Shown one piece after another: positions 4,416 through 46,886 of a stretch of DNA of 64,000 nucleotides (position 1 is the stretch's first letter; the number at the start of each line of letters is the position of its first letter). Both the position numbers and the translations under genes were made by a program. Source of the stretch: an uncultured Bacilli bacterium (GTDB lineage: Bacteria; Bacillota_I; Bacilli_A; RF39; UBA660); the NCBI GenBank assembly GCA_944363785.1, contig CALVVF010000004.1:459-64458 (forward strand), written 5' to 3'. The notes beneath the pieces were generated by a model, which saw only the letters and a list, made by a program, of their open reading frames with translations, was not told the DNA's origin and ran no database searches.

Positions 4416-5084
4416 CATATTAGTCTTTTTGCTCAAACCATTAATTTCTTTTAAAAATTCCACCTTTTCTAATATTCCTAAATCAATTTCTTTTTCACCA
4501 ACCCAATTATATAGTCCAACAATATTCATTTCATGATAATATTTATCCATTGGTAAGCTCCCAATATTAAAAGTAGCTACCCCCATTACTCTAAACATAA
4601 CATACTTATGATTCCATTTACTATTTGTAACAATTTCATGCTTTATTATATCAGCATTATTAATTCGATATAGTAATACATCTCCTATTTTCCATTTAGC
4701 TTTACGAATAACTAACTTAGAAAGTTTTTTCTCTGGCGGTAGAGGACTATTCAATCTTTCTTCTAATTCTTCCAACACCTTTTTTCTCTTTTCATACTGT
4801 TTCTTATTTTCTTTCCACTTTTCTAAATCAGTACCACTTCGAATATACTCTAACGCAATTTCTTTTATTTCAGGAAGTAATCTACCATACTTCCACTGCG
4901 TATCCGCTAACGCTAACCAAAATAGCGGACCGTCATCCGGATCTTCAATAAAGTCCAAATTTAATTCGATTAAATCCTTAGTGGCATCAATATTAGATAA
5001 GCCAACTTTTAAACGATTGACATAATCACTTCTAACATCACAAGTTACATCATCTTGATATAAACCTACTCCCCATGCTCCCAT
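4209..5084 (-). CDS. hypothetical protein with a DUF4259-like N-terminus (MGAWGVGLYQDD)
   Basis: 291-aa track ORF with a GGAGGTAG RBS. The N-terminal GAWGxG motif is recalled from DUF4259. Confidence 0.6.
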   Translation of the reverse strand: MGAWGVGLYQDDVTCDVRSDYVNRLKVGLSNIDATKDLIELNLDFIEDPDDGPLFWLALADTQWKYGRLLPEIKEIALEYIRSGTDLEKWKENKKQYEKRKKVLEELEERLNSPLPPEKKLSKLVIRKAKWKIGDVLLYRINNADIIKHEIVTNSKWNHKYVMFRVMGVATFNIGSLPMDKYYHEMNIVGLYNWVGEKEIDLGILEKVEFLKEINGLSKKTNMMRIFNLRRNQLKLMNLLVVAEDENYISKHGIVTDPVGISWGNERNLDYDIVRALQEAEEENILIDQTK

Positions 5085-5195
5085 TTTTTCTACCTCCTTG
5101 AATCATATGAACTTTTACTTCATAATATCTTTACTATCAAAATAGGAATTATTATTTAAATATTCTCAATATCTTATTAATAACTAAATATACAA

Positions 5196-5456
5196 TTAAT
5201 TATTATTAAAGATTTCATAATATAAATTCTTCTTTTCTTCTTCAGAAAGTGGTATAAAATAATCTTCTTCAAATTCAATACCTATTGATCTTAAATAATC
5301 ATATTCTTCTTCATTCTCACAATAAATATCACATATTTTCTCGTGAGCTACAGAATATAACCAACAATATCCATCTTTAAAAACACATAAATCTTCTAAT
5401 GATGTTGGGAAAATAAAATTATATATTGACTTTCTGTTTAAGATCTCATTTTTCAA
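5196..5456 (-). CDS. small hypothetical protein
   Basis: 86-aa track ORF, same strand as its neighbours. No family recognised. Confidence 0.45.
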   Translation of the reverse strand: MKNEILNRKSIYNFIFPTSLEDLCVFKDGYCWLYSVAHEKICDIYCENEEEYDYLRSIGIEFEEDYFIPLSEEEKKNLYYEIFNNN

Positions 5457-18306: not shown

Positions 18307-18322
18307 TATTTCCCGGGAAATA
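18307..18322. promoter_or_regulatory. Noc-binding site (NBS), isolated copy, in the rsmI-pth intergenic gap
   Basis: TATTTCCCGGGAAATA inside the palindrome AATTATTTCCCGGGAAATAATT. It matches the B. subtilis NBS consensus exactly. Confidence 0.7.
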
Positions 18323-24814: not shown

Positions 24815-25264
24815 TTATGAACGTTTTTGACGAAAAAAATCTTTTACTAAATTAGATGTTTCAACTTCAAGAACTCCGCCAACAATTTCCACAGGATTAC
24901 CATATGAATGACTAGAAAAAATTTTATCTACTAATTCAACATCATTTGTATTGGCAACTGTTCCATATACAACTTTTGCTATTCTAGATTGAGCAATAGC
25001 ACTTGCACACATCGGGCAAGGCATCATAGTTACATATAAAGTACAATCAAGTAAACGCCAGTTTTCTAATTTCTTAGCTGCTTCAATAATACATTCAATT
25101 TCAGCATGAAAAACTGAACATTTTTTAGAATCTTTCTGATTGTGAGCACAAGCAATTACCTGATTATCCTTAACCAAAACAGCTCCAACTGGTACTTCAC
25201 CTATTTGATATGCTTTTTTTGCTTCTTTCAAAGCTAAAATCATATATTTTTCATCACATAACAT
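24815..25264 (-). CDS. tadA: tRNA-specific adenosine deaminase TadA
   Basis: HAE and PCPMC deaminase motifs. Start moved to MLCDEKYMIL (GGGAGAAAA RBS) because the upstream 28 codons of the track ORF overlie the SRP RNA. Confidence 0.9.
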   Translation of the reverse strand: MLCDEKYMILALKEAKKAYQIGEVPVGAVLVKDNQVIACAHNQKDSKKCSVFHAEIECIIEAAKKLENWRLLDCTLYVTMMPCPMCASAIAQSRIAKVVYGTVANTNDVELVDKIFSSHSYGNPVEIVGGVLEVETSNLVKDFFRQKRS

Positions 25265-25279
25265 AATATTTTCTCCCAA

Positions 25280-25359
25280 AAAAAAGTGCACATAAATATG
25301 AAAAATGTTAAGGCTGCTATCTTCCGATCCTGACCTGGTTCCATCCATATTTATTGCAC
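25280..25359 (-). ncRNA. ffs: small (~80 nt) signal recognition particle RNA (4.5S/scRNA type)
   Basis: The minus strand reads GUGCAAUAAAUAUGGAUGGAACCAGGUCAGGAUCGGAAGAUAGCAGCCUUAACAUUUUUCAUAUUUAUGUGCAC plus U8. It has the conserved domain IV (CCAGGUCAGG..GGAA..AGCAGCC), and the 5' and 3' ends pair. Promoter TTGAAA(25394-25389)-17-TAGAAT(25371-25366). Confidence 0.8.
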
Positions 25360-25426
25360 ATCAATATTCTAATATATTTTATCCACAATTTCAATAGAAA
25401 TGCAAAATTTTCTATTATTTTTACAA

Positions 25427-25442
25427 TGTTCCACGTAAAACA
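25427..25442. promoter_or_regulatory. parS-like site 1 (one mismatch)
   Basis: TGTTCCACGTAAAACA, with ACAA..TTGT flanks. Confidence 0.6.
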
Positions 25443-25533
25443 TTGTAAAAATATCAAATAACAATCTATTTTCGTGTATAAACAAGCCGAATTATATACT
25501 TAAAATTAATTTAACTTAGAGAATACACTTTAA

Positions 25534-25549
25534 TGTTCCACGTGGAACA
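25534..25549. promoter_or_regulatory. parS site 2
   Basis: TGTTCCACGTGGAACA, a perfect palindrome. Confidence 0.85.
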
Positions 25550-25561
25550 TTGTGTATAAAT

Positions 25562-25577
25562 TATTTCCCGGGAAATA
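25562..25577. promoter_or_regulatory. NBS 1 (paired with parS 2)
   Basis: TATTTCCCGGGAAATA, 12 nt after the parS. Confidence 0.75.
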
Positions 25578-25751
25578 ATTCTCATAAAAAATCCAAAACT
25601 AAAATATGGATAAATCTCATTTAAGACTTTACTTATATAAAGTAATAATCAAAAAAACATGAAGTCATATAATCAAATAAAGGAGAATTTTTTTCATAAT
25701 CTCTATTATTTATGCAATAAAAACAACATAATTAAATAAATATTTCAACAA

Positions 25752-25767
25752 TGTTTCACGTGGAACA
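25752..25767. promoter_or_regulatory. parS site 3
   Basis: TGTTTCACGTGGAACA, the reverse complement of the canonical TGTTCCACGTGAAACA. Confidence 0.85.
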
Positions 25768-25778
25768 TTGTGCAAAAT

Positions 25779-25794
25779 TATTTCCCGGGAAATA
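25779..25794. promoter_or_regulatory. NBS 2 (paired with parS 3)
   Basis: TATTTCCCGGGAAATA, 11 nt after the parS. Confidence 0.75.
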
Positions 25795-25942
25795 ATTACT
25801 AGATGCAAATTTGAACAAATAGTTTTCAACAAGAAAACAAAAACTTTTCAAACCAACCACTGAATAAATAAACTATATGCACAAAATAAATAATTCTCTT
25901 TCTTATTAATAAGATTGTAATTCTATTGTTAATTTCTAACTA

Positions 25943-25958
25943 TGTTTCACGTGGAACA
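25943..25958. promoter_or_regulatory. parS site 4
   Basis: TGTTTCACGTGGAACA. Confidence 0.85.
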
Positions 25959-26140
25959 TATAATTCATATATAAAAATATAATAATTAATATACAACTTC
26001 AACACATATTAATACTTACAAAACTAGTAAAAAATCAAAAGAAAAATAGCATTATCTAATTAAAGAAACTATAATCCCTAGCTCAATATATAACTGCAAA
26101 TATCATTTAATTTCTCATTTCAATTACTTATACCCTACAA

Positions 26141-26156
26141 TGTTCCACGTGGAACA
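26141..26156. promoter_or_regulatory. parS site 5
   Basis: TGTTCCACGTGGAACA. Confidence 0.85.
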
Positions 26157-26168
26157 TTGTGTATAAAT

Positions 26169-26184
26169 TATTTCCCGGGAAATA
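26169..26184. promoter_or_regulatory. NBS 3 (paired with parS 5)
   Basis: TATTTCCCGGGAAATA, 12 nt after the parS. Confidence 0.75.
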
Positions 26185-26362
26185 ATTTTCCTATATCAAC
26201 ACTAATTTTCAACAGAAGAAGAACTAATAGAATACAGTAAAGCAAAACTAATAAATTTAAAAAGTTTATTCATAAACTAAGACAAAAGCAAAATAGAAAC
26301 ACACTGATATCTCTTGCCTATATTACAATAATATAATTTAAGATTTCGATCACAACCAGTAA

Positions 26363-26378
26363 TGTTCCACGTGAAACA
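26363..26378. promoter_or_regulatory. parS site 6
   Basis: TGTTCCACGTGAAACA, the canonical sequence. Confidence 0.85.
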
Positions 26379-26598
26379 TTGTGTATAACATACTCTATTT
26401 TCTTAATATAAAATACCCAGACTTTTTATTTACTGAACTAAATAAGTAATAGAAAAAAATATTTTTATCAAATAAAATAATAATAAATATAGACTATCAA
26501 TTACTCTTTCGAAATATACCTTTAAATTATTGTTTGATAATTAAAAACTATAATTTAAATTCCACTTACTGGTTATTTAAGCAGTTATATGATGTTAA

Positions 26599-26614
26599 TG
26601 TTCCACGTGGAACA
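26599..26614. promoter_or_regulatory. parS site 7
   Basis: TGTTCCACGTGGAACA. Confidence 0.85.
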
Positions 26615-26625
26615 TTGTGCAAAAT

Positions 26626-26641
26626 TATTTCCCGGGAAATA
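26626..26641. promoter_or_regulatory. NBS 4 (paired with parS 7)
   Basis: TATTTCCCGGGAAATA, 11 nt after the parS. Confidence 0.75.
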
Positions 26642-26748
26642 ATTTTTTTTTTACATCAACAACCAATTTTCAATAAAGAAAGAAACTAATAGAATATAAT
26701 AAAACACTACTGATAAATAAAAGAAAAACCTATTCGTTCTCTAACCAC

Positions 26749-26828
<80 letters not shown>

Positions 26829-26886
26829 GTACTGCTGCTTTATTCATTCAATAATATTATCAACCACAATTATTTACAATCGACAA

Positions 26887-26902
26887 TGTTCCACGTGAAA
26901 CA
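26887..26902. promoter_or_regulatory. parS site 8
   Basis: TGTTCCACGTGAAACA. Confidence 0.85.
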
Positions 26903-27129
26903 TTGTGTATAAAATATATACTATTTCCTTGATCCAAATTATTCAGGATATTTACTAAATTAAATAAACAATAGAAAAAGTATTCTTTCTTATCAAATAA
27001 AATAACAAAAATATAGATCATCAGCTATTCTACTAAACTAATAAATACCTTCTTGAATTTAAAATTTTATAGAGCAAGCAAAACTGTATGATATGAAATT
27101 CTTCAAAAATTATTAAATCACTCACACAA

Positions 27130-27145
27130 TGTTCCACGTGGAACA
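27130..27145. promoter_or_regulatory. parS site 9
   Basis: TGTTCCACGTGGAACA. Confidence 0.85.
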
Positions 27146-27156
27146 TTGTGCAAAAT

Positions 27157-27172
27157 TATTTCCCGGGAAATA
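27157..27172. promoter_or_regulatory. NBS 5 (paired with parS 9)
   Basis: TATTTCCCGGGAAATA, 11 nt after the parS. Confidence 0.75.
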
Positions 27173-27394
27173 ATTTTTAATACAAAATATTAACATATAT
27201 ATAAATTAAAATGATTATTAGATATAAAAGTCATATTTTAATAAATTTTAAACATCTCAGAAAAATTAATATAAATAAATTACTACTAAGTATAATAAAA
27301 AAATTTATTCTACATTCTCTACTAAATTAAAAAAGTAATAATTACAACTATAAAAATATTCCAAATAATTATCTTAGTCTAATTATCTGTGCAA

Positions 27395-27410
27395 TGTTCC
27401 ACGTGGAACA
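27395..27410. promoter_or_regulatory. parS site 10
   Basis: TGTTCCACGTGGAACA. Confidence 0.85.
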
Positions 27411-27694
27411 TTGTGTATAATTATCTATTTAAAATTAATTATACACAATTATTCTTCTGTAAGTATTACTTTATATTAACTAAAAAAATCTAGCATCATA
27501 ACTAATCATATCAAAACTCAGCAAACATCAATTGTCATTTTCTAGATTACCTATAAATATCCACCAACTAAAAAGGCAATACTCAGTATATATAAACTCC
27601 AAAATAAATTCTACTCATCTCTTCATTAATTACTATATAAAACATTTTAAATTATGCACATACTAAAAATATTTCCATACATCTTAATCCATAA

Positions 27695-27710
27695 TGTTCC
27701 ACGTGAAACA
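27695..27710. promoter_or_regulatory. parS site 11
   Basis: TGTTCCACGTGAAACA. Confidence 0.85.
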
Positions 27711-27856
27711 TTGTGTATATTTCTTCCGTTTATAGCGCCAAACATAACACAATTACCATCTATATAAATAAAAATCATAAATTTAATAAGTAACTTCATA
27801 GAACATATGTTTGTATTAATGAGTACATATTTCAATTAACAACATAAATCAAAACA

Positions 27857-27884
27857 TTATAAAAGAGTGATTTTCATCACTCCT
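27857..27884 (-). terminator. intrinsic terminator downstream of gyrA
   Basis: Minus-strand GGAGUGAU-GAAA-AUCACUCU followed by UUUUAUAAUGUUUU. Confidence 0.6.
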
Positions 27885-27922
27885 TTATAACAAATTTAAA
27901 ATCAGAAAAATTTATTACTTAA

Positions 27923-33536: not shown

Positions 33537-33989
33537 TTAACTTTTTTCTATTTTTCTAGAATCTAATAAACACTGTAATCTGCTCGCTCTTAAAATTTGA
33601 TTTTCTATTGAAAGTTTAGATATTGGAATCAATAAATCTTTTCCATTTTTAAAGATAACTCTCGTTCCCTTAGAATCTGATAATACTCTCTCTATAGAAT
33701 GTAAAGAAAGCCAAATACAATCATCAGAACTAGGTGAAGTAGTAGGAAAAAATATTATTCCCATCGACTCTTCTACAATAATAGGTAATTTATAGTTAAA
33801 TCCCAACATTTTCTTACTTCCTTCTGTCCTTCCCTGATAACTACTTCCAAAATAACAACAACTGTAATCCATCACTTCATAGGCATTTTCTTCCAAAATA
33901 CTATCTGTTTGATATTCCATAATTTTGGTTTTATTACCTTTTAAACCAATTACTGCCATTGTTTCTGCATTAACTTCATACTTATCCAT
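33537..33989 (-). CDS. comK: ComK-family competence transcription factor-like protein
   Basis: YEVNAETMAVI..SCCYFGSSYQGRTEGSKKMLGFNYKLPIIVEESMGIIFFPTTSPSSDDCIWLSLHSI aligns with B. subtilis ComK YEVNGATIAVL..SCRFFGSSYAGRKAGTYEVTKISHKPPIMVDPSNQIFLFPTLSSTRPQCGWISHVHV. Confidence 0.75.
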   Translation of the reverse strand: MDKYEVNAETMAVIGLKGNKTKIMEYQTDSILEENAYEVMDYSCCYFGSSYQGRTEGSKKMLGFNYKLPIIVEESMGIIFFPTTSPSSDDCIWLSLHSIERVLSDSKGTRVIFKNGKDLLIPISKLSIENQILRASRLQCLLDSRKIEKS

Positions 33990-35372: not shown

Positions 35373-36749
35373 TTATACAATTTCTTTCTTCAATTTTTCG
35401 ATAATATTCGCAAGTTCTCGATTAGTTAGCATCTCCTTTTCCACTTTTTCTACAGAATGCATAACTGTAGAATGATCTTTTCCACCAAACTCTATTCCTA
35501 TTTTAGGAAAAGACTCATTGGTAAGTTTTCGGCAAAGGTACATCGCAACTTGCCTTGGAAAAGCTAGATTTGCACTTCGTTTTTTACTTTTCATGTCATC
35601 AACAGATATTTGAAAGTGTTCAGCTACTATTCGTTGAATTCTATTGATATTATTCTTTTCACTATATCCTTTATTTACATAATCTTTCAATACTTCTATC
35701 GCTAAATCAAGAGTAATATCAGCACCTCCCATGATAGTGGAATAAGCTAATAATCTAGTAATTGATCCTTCCAAATGTCTAACATCACTACCTACATTCG
35801 AAGCGATATAGTCGATTACATCATCAGGAATATTTTTATCGATCGAATCTCCAATGATTTTCTTCTTGATAATAGCTACTCTAAGTTCAAAATCTGGTGG
35901 ATAAATATCTGCTGTTAGTCCCCAACAAAATCTAGTTCTCAGTCTATCTTCTAACAGTTTTAAATCGTCTGGAGATCGGTCAGAAGATATAATAATCTGC
36001 TTGTTTTCATTATATAATGTCGTAAAAGTATGGAAAAATTCATTTTGGGTTTGTGTTGCTCCTTGGAAAAATTGAATATCATCGATTATTAATACATCAA
36101 TATTTCTATATTTGTCTTTAAAATAGCTAACATAGTCAAAATTTTGTCCAAATTCATCCTTTTTATTAATTCCTAAGAAATCATTAATAAACTGATCACT
36201 AGGTACATATAAGACTTTCTTGTTAGAATGCTGTTCAATATAATTGCCAATGGCATGCATCAAATGTGTTTTTCCCAACCCGCTATTTCCATAAATAAAT
36301 AAAGGATTATAAATATTTCCTGGATTTTCTGCAACATCCATCGCAGCAGCTTGAGCAAATTTATTACTATTTCCTACAATGAAATTTTCAAATGTATAAT
36401 TAGGATTTAAATTGGATTGATGTCGCCTCTCTATTTTATTTTCATTAATTCCCCTACTTTCTTCAAATGTAGGATTCACCGTTGAAGGCGCATCTTCCTC
36501 CAACTCTTCTTTCAAATAAAATTGAATATCAACATTATCCCCTATGATTTCACTCAATGTATTGACAATCAAATCATAATATTTTGTGGCTAAATGTCTT
36601 TTAAACATCCCCATGGGAACAATAATTTTAGCAACCCCATCTTTATATTCATACAATTCAGTATCTTTAAACCAAGTATTATAAGAAAGAGGGGTCATTT
36701 CATTTTGAATACTATTTAAAAAATTAGCCCAAATCATTTTGACATTCAT
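35373..36749 (-). CDS. dnaA: chromosomal replication initiator DnaA
   Basis: 458 aa with GNSGLGKTHL Walker A, the IDDIQF box and a C-terminal DNA-binding domain (KDHSTVMH). Confidence 0.97.
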   Translation of the reverse strand: MNVKMIWANFLNSIQNEMTPLSYNTWFKDTELYEYKDGVAKIIVPMGMFKRHLATKYYDLIVNTLSEIIGDNVDIQFYLKEELEEDAPSTVNPTFEESRGINENKIERRHQSNLNPNYTFENFIVGNSNKFAQAAAMDVAENPGNIYNPLFIYGNSGLGKTHLMHAIGNYIEQHSNKKVLYVPSDQFINDFLGINKKDEFGQNFDYVSYFKDKYRNIDVLIIDDIQFFQGATQTQNEFFHTFTTLYNENKQIIISSDRSPDDLKLLEDRLRTRFCWGLTADIYPPDFELRVAIIKKKIIGDSIDKNIPDDVIDYIASNVGSDVRHLEGSITRLLAYSTIMGGADITLDLAIEVLKDYVNKGYSEKNNINRIQRIVAEHFQISVDDMKSKKRSANLAFPRQVAMYLCRKLTNESFPKIGIEFGGKDHSTVMHSVEKVEKEMLTNRELANIIEKLKKEIV

Positions 36750-39260: not shown

Positions 39261-39276
39261 TATTTCCCGGGAAATA
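39261..39276. promoter_or_regulatory. Noc-binding site (NBS), isolated copy, in the jag-mnmE gap
   Basis: TATTTCCCGGGAAATA within AATTATTTCCCGGGAAATAATT. Confidence 0.7.
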
Positions 39277-40793: not shown

Positions 40794-40809
40794 TATTTCC
40801 CGGGAAATA
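40794..40809. promoter_or_regulatory. Noc-binding site (NBS), isolated copy, in the mnmE-mnmG gap
   Basis: TATTTCCCGGGAAATA within AATTATTTCCCGGGAAATAATT. Confidence 0.7.
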
Positions 40810-40862: not shown

Positions 40863-42731
40863 GTGATGAAGGTGAAGTACGAGATCATCGTTGTTGGTGG
40901 CGGTCATGCGGGTTGTGAAGCAGCTTTAGCTTGTGCACGATTAGGCCATGAAACATTATTAATCACTGGAAATAAAAAAAATATAGCAGATATGCCTTGT
41001 AATCCTTCAATAGGAGGTCCTGCAAAAGGGATTATTGTTAGAGAAATTGATGCCTTAGGTGGAGAAATGGCGAATACAATTGATCATTCCTGCCTTCAAG
41101 TAAAAATGTTAAATACCAAAAAAGGACCAGCTGTAAGAGCCTTAAGAGCCCAAGCAGATAAAATAACTTACCCTAAAGTAATGTTAGATACTTTGGAAAA
41201 TCAAGATAAGTTAACAATATTAGAAGCTATGGTAGAAGATTTACTTGTTGAAGAGGAAAAAATAAATGGTGTAATTCTTTCAAATGGTGAAAAGATTGCA
41301 TCTCAAGCTGTTATTTTGACAACAGGAACTTATCTAAAAGCAACAATTTTAAGAGGTTCATCAAAAACAGCAAGCGGACCTCATGGCGAAACACCATCTC
41401 AACATCTAAGCGACAATCTAAAAAAATTAGGTTTTACGATACAACGATTAAAAACAGGAACCCCACCTAGGATTGCGAAAAGTACAATCGATTATTCCCA
41501 AGCTAGTCTAGAACCGGGCGATAACATTGCTTATACTTTTTCTTTTGATAATGAGCCATTATACCAAGTAGAAGAGCAAATTCCTTGTCATTTAATTTAT
41601 ACAACACCAGAAACTCATCAAATAATCTTAGATAACTTAGAAAAATCTAGTATGTATGGAGGATATGTTGAAGGAATTGGACCAAGATATTGCCCATCTA
41701 TCGAAGATAAAATTGTTCGTTTTAAAGATAAAGAACGTCATCAATTATTTTTAGAGCCAGAAAGTATTTATTACGATGATATTTACATCCAAGGTTTTTC
41801 AACAAGTATGCCTGAAGAGATTCAAGAAAAAATGGTACATAGTTTGCCAGGTATGGAACATGCAAAAATATTAAAGTATGCTTATGCTATAGAGTACGAT
41901 GCAATTGATCCACTTCAGTTAAAACAATCATTGGAAACAAAACTAATTGAAAACCTATATACAGCAGGACAGATTAATGGAACTAGTGGTTATGAAGAAG
42001 CAGCAGGACAAGGATTAATCGCTGGAATCAATGCTTCATTAAAACTAGAAGGAAAAGAACCACTTATCTTAAAAAGAAATGAAGCCTATATTGGTGTTCT
42101 TATCGACGATCTAGTCACGAAAGGAACAAAAGAACCATACCGAATGTTAACTTCTCGTGCCGAATATCGATTACTTTTACGCCATGATAATGCTGATTTA
42201 CGACTTCGTGATTATGGAAGAAAAGTAGGGTTAATCAATGATGAAAAATATCAAAAATTTAGTATCAAGAAAGAATGCATGCAAGAAGTAAAAAATATTC
42301 TTCAACAAATAAAATTAACGCCAACAGAAGAAGTCAATCGTGAGCTTATCGCTTTAAATTCAGCACCATTATCTGATGGAATAACTTTGTACGACTTGTT
42401 AAAAAGAACAGAGATCACTATTGAAAAAATCCAAAAATATCTTCCAAAATCCTATCCAAAAGAAGTAACAGAACAAGTAGAAATTCAAATCAAGTATGAG
42501 GGATATATCAAAAAGGCTAATAAGGAAGCAGAAAAAATGTTGGATCTAGAAAAATTAAAAATACCTGAAGATATCGATTACCACCAAGTCCATAATTTAG
42601 CAAGTGAAGCCTTACAAAAATTATCTACTGTGCGTCCATCAACCATTGCGCAAGCATCACGAATTAGTGGGGTAAATCCTGCTGATATTTCGATATTAAT
42701 GATCTATTTAAAAAAGGAACATAAATTATGA
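40863..42731 (+). CDS. mnmG: tRNA uridine 5-carboxymethylaminomethyl modification enzyme MnmG
   Basis: IVVGGGHAGCEAA FAD motif. The true start is probably ATG 40866 or GTG 40872, downstream of the AAGGAG RBS. Confidence 0.95.
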   Translation: MMKVKYEIIVVGGGHAGCEAALACARLGHETLLITGNKKNIADMPCNPSIGGPAKGIIVREIDALGGEMANTIDHSCLQVKMLNTKKGPAVRALRAQADKITYPKVMLDTLENQDKLTILEAMVEDLLVEEEKINGVILSNGEKIASQAVILTTGTYLKATILRGSSKTASGPHGETPSQHLSDNLKKLGFTIQRLKTGTPPRIAKSTIDYSQASLEPGDNIAYTFSFDNEPLYQVEEQIPCHLIYTTPETHQIILDNLEKSSMYGGYVEGIGPRYCPSIEDKIVRFKDKERHQLFLEPESIYYDDIYIQGFSTSMPEEIQEKMVHSLPGMEHAKILKYAYAIEYDAIDPLQLKQSLETKLIENLYTAGQINGTSGYEEAAGQGLIAGINASLKLEGKEPLILKRNEAYIGVLIDDLVTKGTKEPYRMLTSRAEYRLLLRHDNADLRLRDYGRKVGLINDEKYQKFSIKKECMQEVKNILQQIKLTPTEEVNRELIALNSAPLSDGITLYDLLKRTEITIEKIQKYLPKSYPKEVTEQVEIQIKYEGYIKKANKEAEKMLDLEKLKIPEDIDYHQVHNLASEALQKLSTVRPSTIAQASRISGVNPADISILMIYLKKEHKL

Positions 42732-43414
42732 ATATAGAAGTTTTTAAAGAAGAAGTAGAAAAGTTAGGAATTTCCTTAACTGATGACCAATTAAATCAAC
42801 TAACGTTATTTTATCAATTATTATTATCATGGAATGAAAAAATGAATCTAACTAGAATTACTAATCAAGAAGAAGTATATCTTAAACATTTCTATGATAG
42901 TTTAACTTTATATAAAGAAATCAAATTAGAAACAGTAGATACTTTATGTGATGTAGGAAGTGGAGCCGGTTTTCCTGGTATTGTTTTAAAAATTGCTTTT
43001 CCTAACCTCAATATCACACTGATTGATTCTCTACAGAAGAGAGTGAATTACCTCAATGAAGTCATAAAAGAATTAAAACTATCTAATATTAGAGCTATTC
43101 ACATGAGATGTGAAGATTATGCGCGAGTAAATAGAGAAAAATACGAAGTGGTAACTGCAAGAGCAGTGGCTAACTTGAAAGTGTTATCAGAATTATGTCT
43201 TCCTCTTGTTAAAGAAAATGGTTACTTCATCGCGATGAAAGGAAAAGCAACCGAAGAACTAGACGAAGCCAAAGCCATGATTGGTACTTTAGGTGGGAAA
43301 ATAGAGCATATTAATGAATTCAGCTTACCATTAGAAGAAAGTAGTCGTACATTGATAAAAATAAAAAAGGAGAAGAAAACCGACAAAATCTATCCTAGAA
43401 AGAAAATAAAATAG
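42728..43414 (+). CDS. rsmG: 16S rRNA (guanine527-N7)-methyltransferase RsmG
   Basis: DVGSGAGFPG SAM motif. Synteny after mnmG. Confidence 0.92.
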   Translation: MNIEVFKEEVEKLGISLTDDQLNQLTLFYQLLLSWNEKMNLTRITNQEEVYLKHFYDSLTLYKEIKLETVDTLCDVGSGAGFPGIVLKIAFPNLNITLIDSLQKRVNYLNEVIKELKLSNIRAIHMRCEDYARVNREKYEVVTARAVANLKVLSELCLPLVKENGYFIAMKGKATEELDEAKAMIGTLGGKIEHINEFSLPLEESSRTLIKIKKEKKTDKIYPRKKIK

Positions 43415-44001
43415 GGAATAAAGGGAAATAGCATGCTAAAATACTATAAAAATGTAGTAAAGTATAATGAAAATGTCCAGTATGGCCTTGGTATCATTAC
43501 CGGTTGGAAATCGACAGATATGATTTTGAAACATCTAAGTGAAGAAGATGAATGAAAATATTTTACTGTAACGATAGAAAATAAGTAAATTCAGGTTACT
43601 TTCTATAGTATAGCAGGCAAAAATTACGTAGATTTATAGGAAAAAATGTACTTGAGTTGAGAAATCAATGTACTTTTTATATCAGTAATATCAACCATTA
43701 TTCTATTTAGGTCAAGAGTTAATGAAAACAGAACTAGCCCTAAAAAATCAACTTAGTTAGTACAAGATACCCAATTAGATTTAAAAGTAAAAAGAAAAAC
43801 ATTAAATTCACTCAATTGCCGTAGTACATGAATAAATAAAACCTCCAAAAAATCTAATTTTATAGTATTATTTAATGAATAAAATCATTAAAAATTCTGC
43901 AGAAGTCAAAGTAAAATTTGGCTTTTTTCTTGTCTAGACAAAAAAATATGATATAATGAGTATGATAAAGAATAAGTAAAGAATGAAAAGAGGGTTAATT
44001 T

Positions 44002-45099
44002 ATGGATAGAGAAGTAGTAGATTTATATTTAGATGACATTATCCCTAACCGTTTTCAACCACGTGAAGTATTTAATGAACAAGCATTACGTGAATTAGCT
44101 GATTCTATTAGAGCTCACGGAGTTATTCAGCCGATAATTGTTCGTAAAATAGGGGATAAATATGAAATTATAGCCGGAGAAAGAAGATATAAAGCTTCTG
44201 CCATGGCAGGATTAACCAAAATTCCAGCAATTATTAGAAATTTAGATGATAAAGAAACTTCAAAAGTTGCGTTACTAGAAAATCTACAACGAAAAGATTT
44301 GACTCCGATTGAAGAGGCAAGAACTTATCAAAAAATATTAGAATTAGATTCGATGACTCAAGAAGAATTAGGGCGTACCATGGGTAAATCACAAGCCGCT
44401 ATTGCGAACAAAATGCGTTTATTGTCTTTACCAGATGAAGTACAAGAAGCTCTTCTTCATGATCAAATTTCCGAAAGACATGCAAGAAGTCTATTAAATT
44501 TAGATACGAGTGAAGAACAAATTAGCATGCTTCATGCTATCATCGAAAAAAGAATGACAGTTAGAGAATTAGATCAAGAAATCAGAAGAATAAAAGGAAT
44601 TCCTGAACCTATATCTGAACAAGAAACGACAGGCATAAACAAAGATTTCAGTGATTCTCCTGATATCGCCCCAACACCGGTAAAGATTCCAGATGCTATC
44701 AGTTCAGCACCAACATCGCCGATAAACAACAAAAATGATTCACCAATCGACTTACTAGCTTCTGCTCATAAGACTACTTCTACTCCTGCTACGAAAATGG
44801 ACTCTTCTTTCCCACAAGTGGAAGAAGAAGAGGATATAATGAGCAATATATTTACTTTGGATGATAATGAAGATAATCGTTCTTCTGTAGCTCAATCAGA
44901 AATGATTACCGAGAAAAAAATAAATGATCCAATTGAAGAGTTATTGGATGATGAAGAATTATATTCTTTACGTGATGCAGTAAGTGAGTTACGTAGAACA
45001 GTTACTAACCTAGAGAAAAAAGGCTTTGTAATTAAAGTAGAAGAATTGGATTTTGAAAAAACTTACCAAGTCGTAATAAAAATCAATAAAGATATCTAA
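44002..45099 (+). CDS. noc: nucleoid occlusion protein Noc (ParB paralogue), atypical architecture
   Basis: ParB N-domain (IPNRFQPR, GERRYKAS). The HTH has a Noc-type signature, GKSQAAIANKMRLL...SERHAR. The C-terminus EELDFEKTYQVVIKINK matches B. subtilis Noc EEEFEEYIQLTIRIPK. The rsmG-noc-soj-spo0J synteny also supports the call. Confidence 0.8.
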   Translation: MDREVVDLYLDDIIPNRFQPREVFNEQALRELADSIRAHGVIQPIIVRKIGDKYEIIAGERRYKASAMAGLTKIPAIIRNLDDKETSKVALLENLQRKDLTPIEEARTYQKILELDSMTQEELGRTMGKSQAAIANKMRLLSLPDEVQEALLHDQISERHARSLLNLDTSEEQISMLHAIIEKRMTVRELDQEIRRIKGIPEPISEQETTGINKDFSDSPDIAPTPVKIPDAISSAPTSPINNKNDSPIDLLASAHKTTSTPATKMDSSFPQVEEEEDIMSNIFTLDDNEDNRSSVAQSEMITEKKINDPIEELLDDEELYSLRDAVSELRRTVTNLEKKGFVIKVEELDFEKTYQVVIKINKDI

Positions 45100-45196: not shown

Positions 45197-46006
45197 ATGG
45201 GAAAGATAATATCATTAGTAAATCAAAAAGGTGGAGTAGGAAAAACGACAACAAGTATCAATCTTTCTGCATCTTTAGCTTACTTAGGAAAAAGAGTATT
45301 GTTAATTGATTTAGACCCACAGGGAAATGCAACAACAGGTGTTGGAATTAATAAAGGAGATATTAGTAAGAGTGTTCATGATGTTATGACAGAAAAGTGT
45401 AATATCGTAGAAGCAATTATTAAGACGAAATATAAAAATCTTTATCTTTTGCCTGCAACGATTAATCTAGCTGGTATTGATATAGAATTGATGGAGATGA
45501 GTAAACAAGATCAAAATTTTTCTAAAAACGTCCAATTGAAGAAAGCTTTGGATCCAATTAGAGATTCTTTTGATTATATAATTATCGATTGCCCACCTTC
45601 TTTAGGATTAATTACAACTAATGCTTTAACAGCTTCTAATTCAGTAATTATTCCAGTTCAATGTGAATTTTTTGCCCTAGAAGGAATTACCCAGTTGTTA
45701 AATACAATTATGTTAGCGCAAAAAAACTTAAATCCAAATTTGGACATTGAAGGTGTACTATTAACGATGCTTGATTCAAGAGCAATTCTCTGTTTGGAAG
45801 TAGTTGAGGATATTAGAAGATTTTTTAAAGAACGTGTATACAACACAATTATTCCAAGATTAGTAAGAATTGCTGAGGCACCATCACATGGTACGCCAAT
45901 CATTGCATATGATTCTAAACATCGTGGCTCGATTGCTTATTTAAATTTAGCAAAGGAAGTGATTGAAAGAAATGGAAACTCAAACACAAGCACAAGCACA
46001 AACTAG
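45197..46006 (+). CDS. soj: chromosome partitioning ATPase ParA/Soj
   Basis: Deviant Walker A, NQKGGVGKTTT. Confidence 0.95.
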   Translation: MGKIISLVNQKGGVGKTTTSINLSASLAYLGKRVLLIDLDPQGNATTGVGINKGDISKSVHDVMTEKCNIVEAIIKTKYKNLYLLPATINLAGIDIELMEMSKQDQNFSKNVQLKKALDPIRDSFDYIIIDCPPSLGLITTNALTASNSVIIPVQCEFFALEGITQLLNTIMLAQKNLNPNLDIEGVLLTMLDSRAILCLEVVEDIRRFFKERVYNTIIPRLVRIAEAPSHGTPIIAYDSKHRGSIAYLNLAKEVIERNGNSNTSTSTN

Positions 46007-46886
46007 AAGAAAAGCCTTAGGAAGAGGCCTAGAAGAATTATTTAATAATGAACCAATGAACTATGAACAAATAGAAGAAAAAATTGTTACAACAACCCCA
46101 AAAGAACAAATCGTCGAATTGAACTTATCTGAATTACGTAGTAATCCTTACCAACCACGTAAAAATTTTGACGAAAAAGCCTTACAAGAATTAGCCAATT
46201 CAATCAGAGAATATGGTGTATTTCAACCGATTATTGCCAAAAAAAGCATTAAAGGATATGAAATTATAGCCGGAGAAAGAAGAGTAAAAGCATCTACTCT
46301 TGCCGGACGTGAAACTATACCAGCAATTCTTCGTGATTTTACTGATCAAGAAATGATGGAAATTGCGCTTTTAGAGAACCTTCAACGAGAAAATTTAAAT
46401 GCTTTAGAAGAAGCGCTTGCGTATAAAAAATTAATTGAAGAATTATCATTGACGCAAGAAGCATTGGCTAATAGAATTGGAAAAAGTAGAAGCCATATTA
46501 CGAATATGTTAGGACTTTTGTCATTACCAGAAGAAGTAAAAGATTTAATCATGGAAAACAAATTAACTATGGGGCACGCACGTGCTTTGAGTAAACTTGA
46601 AAATCCAACGAAAATTAAAGATTTAGCCCAAAAGGTAGTAATGGAGAACTTAAGTGTTCGTCAAGTTGAAAATCTTGCTACCGAACCAACGACAGAAAAA
46701 ACAAGAAAAAATAGAAAAGCAAATAATTTATCCCTTGAATATCGAACTGTAGAAGAAACATTATCTGAAAAATTAGGAACAAAAGTAAAAATTAATCATA
46801 ATAAGCTAGAAATTTCTTTTACTAATCATAATGATTTAAATCGTTTATTAGAAATAATGGGGATAGATAAGGAAAAAGCCATCTAA
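45972..46886 (+). CDS. parB: chromosome partitioning protein ParB/Spo0J
   Basis: N-terminal RKALGRGLEELF ParA-interaction motif, then NPYQPRK and GERRVKAS. The HTH GKSRSHITNMLGLL...MGHAR is ParB-type. The track ORF starts at TTG 45963; ATG 45972 after AAGGAAG is preferred. Confidence 0.92.
   Translation: METQTQAQAQTRRKALGRGLEELFNNEPMNYEQIEEKIVTTTPKEQIVELNLSELRSNPYQPRKNFDEKALQELANSIREYGVFQPIIAKKSIKGYEIIAGERRVKASTLAGRETIPAILRDFTDQEMMEIALLENLQRENLNALEEALAYKKLIEELSLTQEALANRIGKSRSHITNMLGLLSLPEEVKDLIMENKLTMGHARALSKLENPTKIKDLAQKVVMENLSVRQVENLATEPTTEKTRKNRKANNLSLEYRTVEETLSEKLGTKVKINHNKLEISFTNHNDLNRLLEIMGIDKEKAI

Follow-up and report, generated by a model that had tools for sequence, protein, structure and literature searches.

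Noc, the standard example of a nucleoid-occlusion factor in Gram-positive bacteria, stops division through DNA; its mechanism is defined by a cytidine triphosphate (CTP)-gated amphipathic helix at the N-terminus, which draws DNA to the membrane. Noc-binding sites (NBS) of the Bacillus type are scattered round the chromosome except near the terminus. We analysed a stretch of 64,000 nucleotides of contig CALVVF010000004.1 from an uncultured Bacilli bacterium, referred to hereafter as the window and used for all coordinates, in which the gene at 44002–45099 encodes a Noc orthologue with an intact clamp core. The protein begins without the membrane-targeting helix and carries a long acidic linker, and NBS in its clade lie largely near the origin, many of them among parS sites; it may act there with ParB rather than as a membrane tether.

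In Noc of G. thermoleovorans, alpha1 is the membrane-targeting helix; it is followed by alpha2, which is conserved in Noc and helps to hold alpha1 in an autoinhibited state, and then by an 8-amino-acid loop (PMC8429893). An N-terminal amphipathic helix was reported in every Noc homologue examined in work on B. subtilis, in which the truncated NocNdelta10 was cytosolic and non-functional (PMC4331003). NocNdelta10 binds CTP and engages its N-domains with CTP and NBS DNA, without membrane binding and with impaired nucleoid occlusion (PMC8429893, PMC4331003). Given CTP and NBS DNA, its E29C variant shows N-domain crosslinking like that of the wild type, and the crystallised NocNdelta26deltaCTD was described as being in the N-domain-engagement conformation (PMC8429893). 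The residues specifying NBS are Q173, K179, K184 and R201, as against R, T, A and G in Caulobacter ParB, and a lysine at just one of the positions 179 and 184 is enough for Q173 and R201 to be licensed for NBS (PMC7383237). In S. aureus, Noc is a spatial division inhibitor whose consensus site was built from 41 major binding peaks; it also provides a precedent for an origin-related role, restraint of replication initiation, besides division control (PMC5540599).

The gene in the window and the domains of its product are as follows:
44002–45099, + strand: noc orthologue, 365 amino acids plus stop, ATG at 44002
44002–44292, + strand: ParB/Noc N-terminal CTP-binding domain, residues 1–97 (PF02195, E 8.7e-35), beginning at strand beta1
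44293–44592, + strand: helix-turn-helix (HTH) DNA-binding domain, residues 98–197 (PF17762, E 4.6e-33), with Q131, K137, S142 and R159
44593–44952, + strand: disordered acidic linker, residues 198–317 (composition, charge, AlphaFold)
44953–45096, + strand: Noc-type C-terminal dimerisation domain, residues 318–365 (hhalign, TIGR04285, AlphaFold)

Orthology to Noc was assigned from synteny, phylogeny, the profile of the C-terminal domain and the specificity residues of the HTH. Relatives were sampled as the closest 80 loci and, for the wider family, as the best 150 cluster representatives at 50% identity. Of the 80 related loci, almost all those on contigs of sufficient length had the gene order mnmG-rsmG-noc-parA-parB-mscS. 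When the protein was aligned with the Noc and ParB families, a neighbour-joining tree of the 194-amino-acid core placed the Noc-like proteins of the clade together with Bacillaceae Noc, apart from all ParB, in 50/50 bootstraps; in a broader tree, calculated without bootstraps, the clade proteins still fell inside a Bacillota-wide Noc-type clade. Compared with a Bacillaceae Noc profile by hhalign, the C-terminal domain matched over 52 columns (probability 98.6%, E 1e-15), and no match was obtained with a profile of the ParB C-terminal domain. An independent duplication of ParB, considered as an alternative origin of the gene, was rejected on the tree and on this profile comparison.

Domain and structure searches pointed the same way. 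Pfam recognised ParB_N and HTH_ParB in the protein and did not recognise the last ~50 residues. The best NCBIfam model was TIGR04285 (nucleoid occlusion protein), with 287.6 bits over profile positions 1–198 of 255, and the neighbouring ParB scored 239.4 bits; the curated cut-off of 315 bits was not reached, and the match to the model is split because of the long linker, the C-terminal segment alone matching only TIGR04285 (positions 215–255 of 255, E 0.012). The best matches in the PDB, 7ng0, 7nfu and 7ol9, are all Noc, and solved relatives ranked as Noc of G. thermoleovorans (216 bits), Noc of B. subtilis (190), Spo0J of Thermus (185) and Spo0J of B. subtilis (167). In the AlphaFold model the HTH domain, with a predicted local distance difference test (pLDDT) score of 83–94, superimposed on the complex of the Noc DNA-binding domain with NBS (6y93) with a TM score of 0.90 and a root-mean-square deviation of 1.2–1.5 A, and the C-terminal domain was a helix plus two strands (pLDDT 81–88). 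The CTP boxes FQPR (F18–R21), GERR (G59–R62, within GERRxRA) and ENLQR (E93–R97) were invariant in 46 homologues. The protein does not resemble a chromosomal ParB, having Q and R at the positions equivalent to 173 and 201, no LG(K/R)GL peptide and no ParB_C Pfam domain; the paralogue downstream has a parS-type HTH, a ParA-stimulating N-terminal peptide and a ParB_C domain.

The beginning of the protein is fixed by the following elements upstream of the ATG:
43930–43957, + strand: promoter-like site TTGTCT-16-(TG)TATAAT, 10/12 matches, the best of the region
43990–43994, + strand: ribosome-binding site (RBS) GAGGG of noc, from sequence reading
43996–43998, + strand: in-frame stop codon TAA, one codon (TTT, 43999–44001) before the noc start

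With a TAA one codon before the ATG, the noc frame cannot extend upstream, and because the promoter-like site lies 45 bp 5' of the ATG, its transcript cannot encode an N-terminal extension. The product opens MDREVVDLYLDDII-PNRFQPR, so that the ParB box begins only 14 residues in. In alignments with the solved Noc structures, its residue 4 falls opposite residue 27 in G. thermoleovorans, and its residue 3 opposite residue 28 in B. subtilis. Its M1 thus corresponds to residue 24 of the G. thermoleovorans protein, and alpha1, alpha2 and most of the loop (the first ~23 residues) are missing. Noc from 71 Bacillaceae genomes begins MKHPFSRFFSFGEKEQEE... (MKHPFSRFF...), 34–48 residues ahead of PNRFQPR, a numbering that agrees with the F9, F11, E13, Q16 and E20 contacts of the G. 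thermoleovorans structure (PMC8429893). The 14 N-terminal residues of the window protein carry a net charge of −4. In all 80 related loci the frame was closed 14–48 codons upstream of the PNRFQPR motif, with a methionine ~13–31 residues (mostly 14–18) before it, and similarly short, acidic N-termini were found in ~147 of the best 150 cluster representatives.

Other sources of an anchor were considered. An upstream or non-canonical start was rejected, the frame being shut in 80/80 relatives and the intervening codons being the translated RBS region. A split gene supplying the helix had a single candidate, a 20-amino-acid open reading frame (ORF) at 43875–43937 (MNKIIKNSAEVKVKFGFFLV) that overlaps the −35 element; it cannot be conserved, since the rsmG-noc gap measures only ~100–150 bp in most relatives. 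A relocated membrane-targeting helix was not supported by a hydrophobic-moment scan, in which cationic amphipathic 11-mers occurred only inside folded domains or at the junction of the DNA-binding domain and the linker. The window Noc would therefore appear, from these features of its sequence, unable to tether DNA to the membrane by itself.

The gap between rsmG and noc (43415–44001) is itself variable, at 588 bp here and ~1.6 kb in the closest species, which indicates an insertion or a loss; in the window it contains no conserved ORF and no Rfam match.

The linker that joins the HTH domain to the C-terminal domain is 120 amino acids long, rich in S/T/P/D/E/N and of net charge −17, and AlphaFold gave residues 201–310 a pLDDT of 38–47 and no secondary structure. 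Linkers of 71 Bacillaceae Noc proteins were 11–18 amino acids long, K/R/P-rich and of charge about +3, and those of 78 Bacillaceae ParB proteins 14–25 amino acids with a charge of about +3. Among the family representatives the linkers were 43–547 amino acids long (median 230), N/E/P/S/D-rich, with a median charge of −28. The segment evolves fast: Noc shares only 72–74% identity with its counterpart in the closest species, where ParA shares 97% and ParB about 90%. A recurring motif, for example VDINKIKENAIDI, with the pattern ~[DN]-phi-x-x-phi-[KR]-x-x-[AST]-x-[DEN]-phi, was present in 64/147 family representatives, compared with 0.6 in shuffled linkers. It has been lost in the genus group of the window, where it was found in 2/120 close homologues and not in the window Noc. 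The linkers of this genus group keep small islands instead (PIDLLAS, NIF[TV]L[DN]D and [IV]EELLDD).

An earlier note on this DNA, made from the sequence, had described the in-frame stop, a start only 14 residues before the ParB-type N-domain, a low-complexity S/T/P/D/E-rich insertion between HTH and C-terminal segment, and Noc-type residues in the HTH; each of these readings holds. The HTH of the window Noc, GKSQAAIANKMRLLS...SERHAR, has Q, K, S and R at the specificity positions (Q131, K137, S142, R159) and so shares three of the four with Bacillus-type Noc, and that of the downstream ParB paralogue, GKSRSHITNMLGLLS...MGHAR, has R, M, S and G. Across the clade the signature was Q-K-[SNTA]-R, in which the lysine equivalent to K184 was never present and the R is the invariant R of SERHAR.

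Perfect NBS cores ATTTCCCGGGAAAT occurred eight times in the 64-kb window, against 0.3 expected allowing up to 2 mismatches, and the search at up to 2 mismatches found no further NBS in it. All eight lie inside a 22-bp palindrome AATTATTTCCCGGGAAATAATT, all are intergenic, and every CCCGGG of the window, which has 29% GC, falls in an NBS. Together with the clade-wide HTH signature and the retention in place of the mnmE/mnmG site, these sites support the proposal that the window Noc still reads NBS. The sites are:
18308–18321: NBS, pth/rsmI intergenic region
25563–25576: NBS, paired with parS at 25534
25780–25793: NBS, paired with parS at 25752
26170–26183: NBS, paired with parS at 26141
26627–26640: NBS, paired with parS at 26599
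27158–27171: NBS, paired with parS at 27130
39262–39275: NBS, jag/mnmE intergenic region, a position that recurs in relatives
40795–40808: NBS, mnmE/mnmG intergenic region, kept in place in 26/80 related loci

The five paired sites belong to one array next to gyrA:
25427–27710: non-coding parS/NBS array between the signal recognition particle (SRP) RNA/tadA and gyrA, with 11 parS-like sites and 5 NBS

The 2.57 kb from 25349 to 27922 contain no ORF of at least 90 amino acids. The parS-like sites read TGTTyCACGTGrAACA, and each of the 5 NBS follows a parS after exactly 13 bp. Sites are irregularly spaced, at about 110–300 bp, and the spacers are unrelated to one another. The array was not a simple tandem repeat: apart from an (AAAT)20 microsatellite and a weak repeat of 11 bp, Tandem Repeats Finder detected nothing. 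Since the spacers are not repetitive, selection acts on the sites as such. The microsatellite is perfect and lies inside the array, at 26749–26828. A small bacterial SRP RNA (RF00169, 52.9 bits; 25277–25365, − strand) adjoins the array and overlaps the 3' end of the tadA-like ORF at 24815–25348; it was the only Rfam match between 24.5 and 46 kb.

The same arrangement was seen in related genomes. A collection-wide survey with an exact 18-bp NBS pattern returned at least 119 blocks of 8 kb, of which 85 were low-GC among the matches listed, and the counts given below for blocks and contigs hold among those matches. Homologues of at least two window genes were present in 77/85 low-GC blocks (91%), and of at least one in 81/85. 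As the window is ~5% of a genome of 1.2–1.5 Mb, dispersed NBS would give ~5% rather than 91%. The commonest NBS position in these blocks was between tadA and gyrA, and 64/173 NBS lay within 150 bp of a parS. High-GC blocks, which came from Listeria, Planococcus, Psychrobacillus and others, that is, hosts of Bacillus-type Noc, were mostly without window homologues and served as an internal control. The 16 low-GC contigs that reached 100 kb or more, 4.8 Mb together, each had a single block, always origin-syntenic, which is only suggestive. In the window the NBS are concentrated within about 20 kb of oriC, most of them interleaved with parS beside gyrA. The scattering of NBS everywhere but near the terminus was not found in the clade, judged indirectly from these 8-kb blocks. 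Arrays comparable to that of the window, some strictly periodic, occupied the same place in many related genomes; in the complete 1.52-Mb genome OZ006970.1, NBS and parS alternate regularly, with a period of 126 bp, in an array beside gyrA, gyrB, dnaX and tadA.

The short N-terminus and the long linker occurred together in 80/80 related loci and in ~147 of the best 150 cluster representatives. Being so widely shared, these features are a clade trait, and not due to chance, assembly error or the oddity of a single gene. The clade is a large group of uncultured low-GC gut Bacilli, filed under names such as Tenericutes/Bacilli bacterium, Candidatus (Allo)scybalousia and Mycoplasma sp. CAG:611; NCBI places Candidatus (Allo)scybalousia in Bacilli incertae sedis.

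A wider sample of Noc-type proteins was obtained from a scan seeded with the Noc-type protein of a high-GC Bacillota metagenome-assembled genome. In one high-GC Bacillota metagenome-assembled genome the exact 18-bp NBS, at 4848, falls within the noc-type gene (4520–5386, − strand). Noc-type (Q-K-x-R) ParB paralogues proved widespread, occurring in Clostridia, Peptococcia, Halanaerobiales-like bacteria and Erysipelotrichales, and the anchor-like N-terminus was patchy among them. It was seen, as [FL]S[KR][FL]FG and variants, in Bacillaceae, Peptococcia, Halobacteroidaceae, Christensenellaceae and some Oscillospiraceae. Short N-termini of 13–23 residues without the amphipathic motif were found also in Clostridiaceae (for example, C. 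thermobutyricum), Eubacterium, Defluviitaleaceae and Erysipelotrichales (Longicatena and Amedibacillus, with QKNR and QKQR). Absence of the anchor, as judged from these sequences, recurs in Bacillota, and its patchiness is at odds with the published statement that the helix occurs in all homologues (PMC4331003). Anchorless proteins outside the clade share Q-K-x-R with it and are shorter, almost all having a short linker: they measure 252–310 amino acids, with 239–257 from motif to stop in almost all cases and 291 in one protein of Clostridiaceae. The corresponding distance is 302–527 amino acids in the 80 related loci and 351 in the window, and whole proteins of the clade reach 798 amino acids. 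In this sample of Noc-type proteins only the window clade had the long acidic linker, and origin-confined, parS-interleaved NBS were seen in this clade, the sole anchorless lineage surveyed for NBS. Literature searches found no paper describing anchorless Noc or parS/NBS arrays.

The earlier note's description of the gene as atypical needs correction, both features being the norm of a very large clade and anchorless Noc-type proteins being found outside it. Its other proposals held, as far as sequence comparison can show. That orthologues share the truncated N-terminus and the linker was confirmed; that the protein probably reads NBS, that it may not bind membrane and that it may have been repurposed as part of an origin or centromere complex all accord with the sequence comparisons above.

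The genes around noc form the origin cluster that is canonical for Firmicutes. On the − strand are dnaA (35373–36749), dnaN, recF, gyrB and gyrA, and on the + strand rnpA, yidC, jag, mnmE (from 39378), mnmG, rsmG (42728–43414), noc, soj, spo0J and a gene for an MscS-like channel. The partition genes that follow noc are:
45197–46006, + strand: soj/parA
45963–46886, + strand: spo0J/parB, with a ParB-type HTH, the N-terminal peptide KALGRGLEELF and a ParB_C domain

As listed, the parB ORF starts with TTG and its first 44 bp (45963–46006) lie within the 3' end of parA; the true start may be an ATG three codons downstream (MKEM...). ParA has an unusual C-terminal tail, NGNSNTSTSTN. Between recF and dnaN is a gene for a ComK-domain protein of 150 amino acids (PF06338, E 2.9e-40; 33537–33989, − strand), an unusual occupant of a dnaA-dnaN-recF-gyrB cluster; related genomes encode homologues of it at this position.

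Set beside the described systems, the window protein is orthologous to Noc of B. subtilis and G. thermoleovorans (7ol9, 7nfu, 7ng0, 6y93), with the same gene position, CTP-binding N-domain, C-terminal domain, HTH residues equivalent to Q173, K179 and R201, and NBS core. It differs from them in lacking alpha1 and alpha2, in the replacement of K184 by S/N/T/A in the clade, in a long acidic linker in place of a short basic one, and in the clustering of the clade's NBS at the origin among parS. In starting at the equivalent of residue 24 it resembles the engineered NocNdelta10 and NocNdelta26deltaCTD (PMC4331003, PMC8429893); unlike these truncations, its short form is the wild-type state, kept clade-wide and combined with a long acidic linker and relocated sites. 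It would share with the ParB/Spo0J-parS complex the character of a CTP-dependent clamp at origin-proximal palindromes, with sites beside parS in one array. Unlike ParB/Spo0J it has Noc-type residues, no LG(K/R)GL peptide and a C-terminal domain unrelated to ParB_C at profile level, and a normal ParB is encoded separately, two genes downstream.

We put the probability at roughly 50% that Noc of this clade is an anchorless CTP clamp with a polyanionic linker that acts at the origin/centromere with ParB and not as a membrane tether. With the CTP-binding N-domain, the NBS-reading HTH and the dimerisation domain all kept, loading at NBS and closure into a CTP-dependent sliding clamp, as in Bacillus Noc, would be expected. 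The protein would share the origin-proximal domain with ParB, and the nucleoprotein complex of the centromere/origin would thus contain two paralogous CTP clamps. As for the acidic linker, it may serve either as a bristle, entropic or electrostatic in its action, or as an arm for docking, and could in this way shape the partition complex or mark the origin region for another partner. Chromosome-wide, membrane-based nucleoid occlusion would not be carried out by such a protein. More tentatively, the centromere of the clade might be built from two paralogous CTP clamps, ParB and anchorless Noc with its polyanionic tail, which would jointly make up the origin partition complex on interleaved parS and NBS of a dedicated non-coding array next to gyrA, membrane tethering being only one lineage-specific use of Noc.

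Several points weigh against an origin-bound, anchorless clamp. An exact 18-bp pattern would miss weaker or differently flanked NBS elsewhere in the genomes, and confinement to the origin was judged from 8-kb blocks, not from clade genomes read end to end. The spacing between NBS and parS is 13 bp here and ~43–55 bp in another genus (relative L085, with a 126-bp array), and such variation between genera argues against a fixed Noc-ParB contact. In addition, the anchorless proteins of Clostridiaceae and Erysipelotrichales have short linkers, so that the two changes, the anchor lost and the linker gained, can occur apart and may differ in meaning. Finally, the conserved linker motif of many family members could recruit a membrane protein and restore tethering in trans.

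This last point leads to the first of the competing explanations, in which classical nucleoid occlusion is retained and the tether is supplied by a membrane or division protein docked on the linker. Conservation of the CTP switch, of NBS reading and of the dimerisation domain would suit it, as would the docking-site-like enrichment of the linker motif over shuffled linkers. The motif is nevertheless missing from the window Noc and nearly so from its genus group, a strongly anionic linker would be repelled by anionic membranes, and NBS concentrated at the origin are ill-suited to occlusion over the bulk nucleoid; we consider a tether in trans unlikely. Equally improbable in our judgement is that Noc mainly controls replication initiation, NBS-loaded clamps spreading over dnaA-oriC and restraining DnaA, as proposed for S. 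aureus Noc. NBS do flank oriC, the sites at 39262 and 40795 being 2.5–4 kb from dnaA and the array 8.6–11.3 kb away on the other side, but the dnaA-flanking intergenic regions of the window contain no NBS, the tight interleaving with parS points to a partition complex rather than an initiator, and the S. aureus mechanism is itself unresolved (PMC5540599). That noc is a decaying or functionless remnant is very improbable. In its favour are the small size and rapid evolution of the genomes, the predicted absence of peptidoglycan in some families of RFN20, a related order (PMC10868615; the window organism is not placed there here), and a linker that changes much faster than the neighbouring genes. 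Against it, the folded domains are strongly conserved in no fewer than 150 clusters at 50% identity, and many of their catalytic and DNA-contact residues are invariant; perfect NBS palindromes are kept and conserved in position, and noc has its own promoter-like site and RBS.

For annotation, the findings carry a warning, because Noc proteins of this kind score under the TIGR04285 cut-off and are named as generic ParB/RepB/Spo0J partition proteins. For the biology of the family, the helix alone is missing from a very large natural clade in which the rest of Noc, and perfect NBS, are retained. If the interpretation of Noc as an anchorless clamp at the origin is true, Noc has a second, membrane-independent job there, and nature has already made the laboratory's Ndelta truncation. 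The interleaved parS/NBS arrays would then be a ready system for learning how two paralogous sliding clamps share DNA, and the anchorless Noc-type proteins of Clostridiaceae, Eubacterium and Erysipelotrichales would point to an unstudied, membrane-independent core function of Noc.

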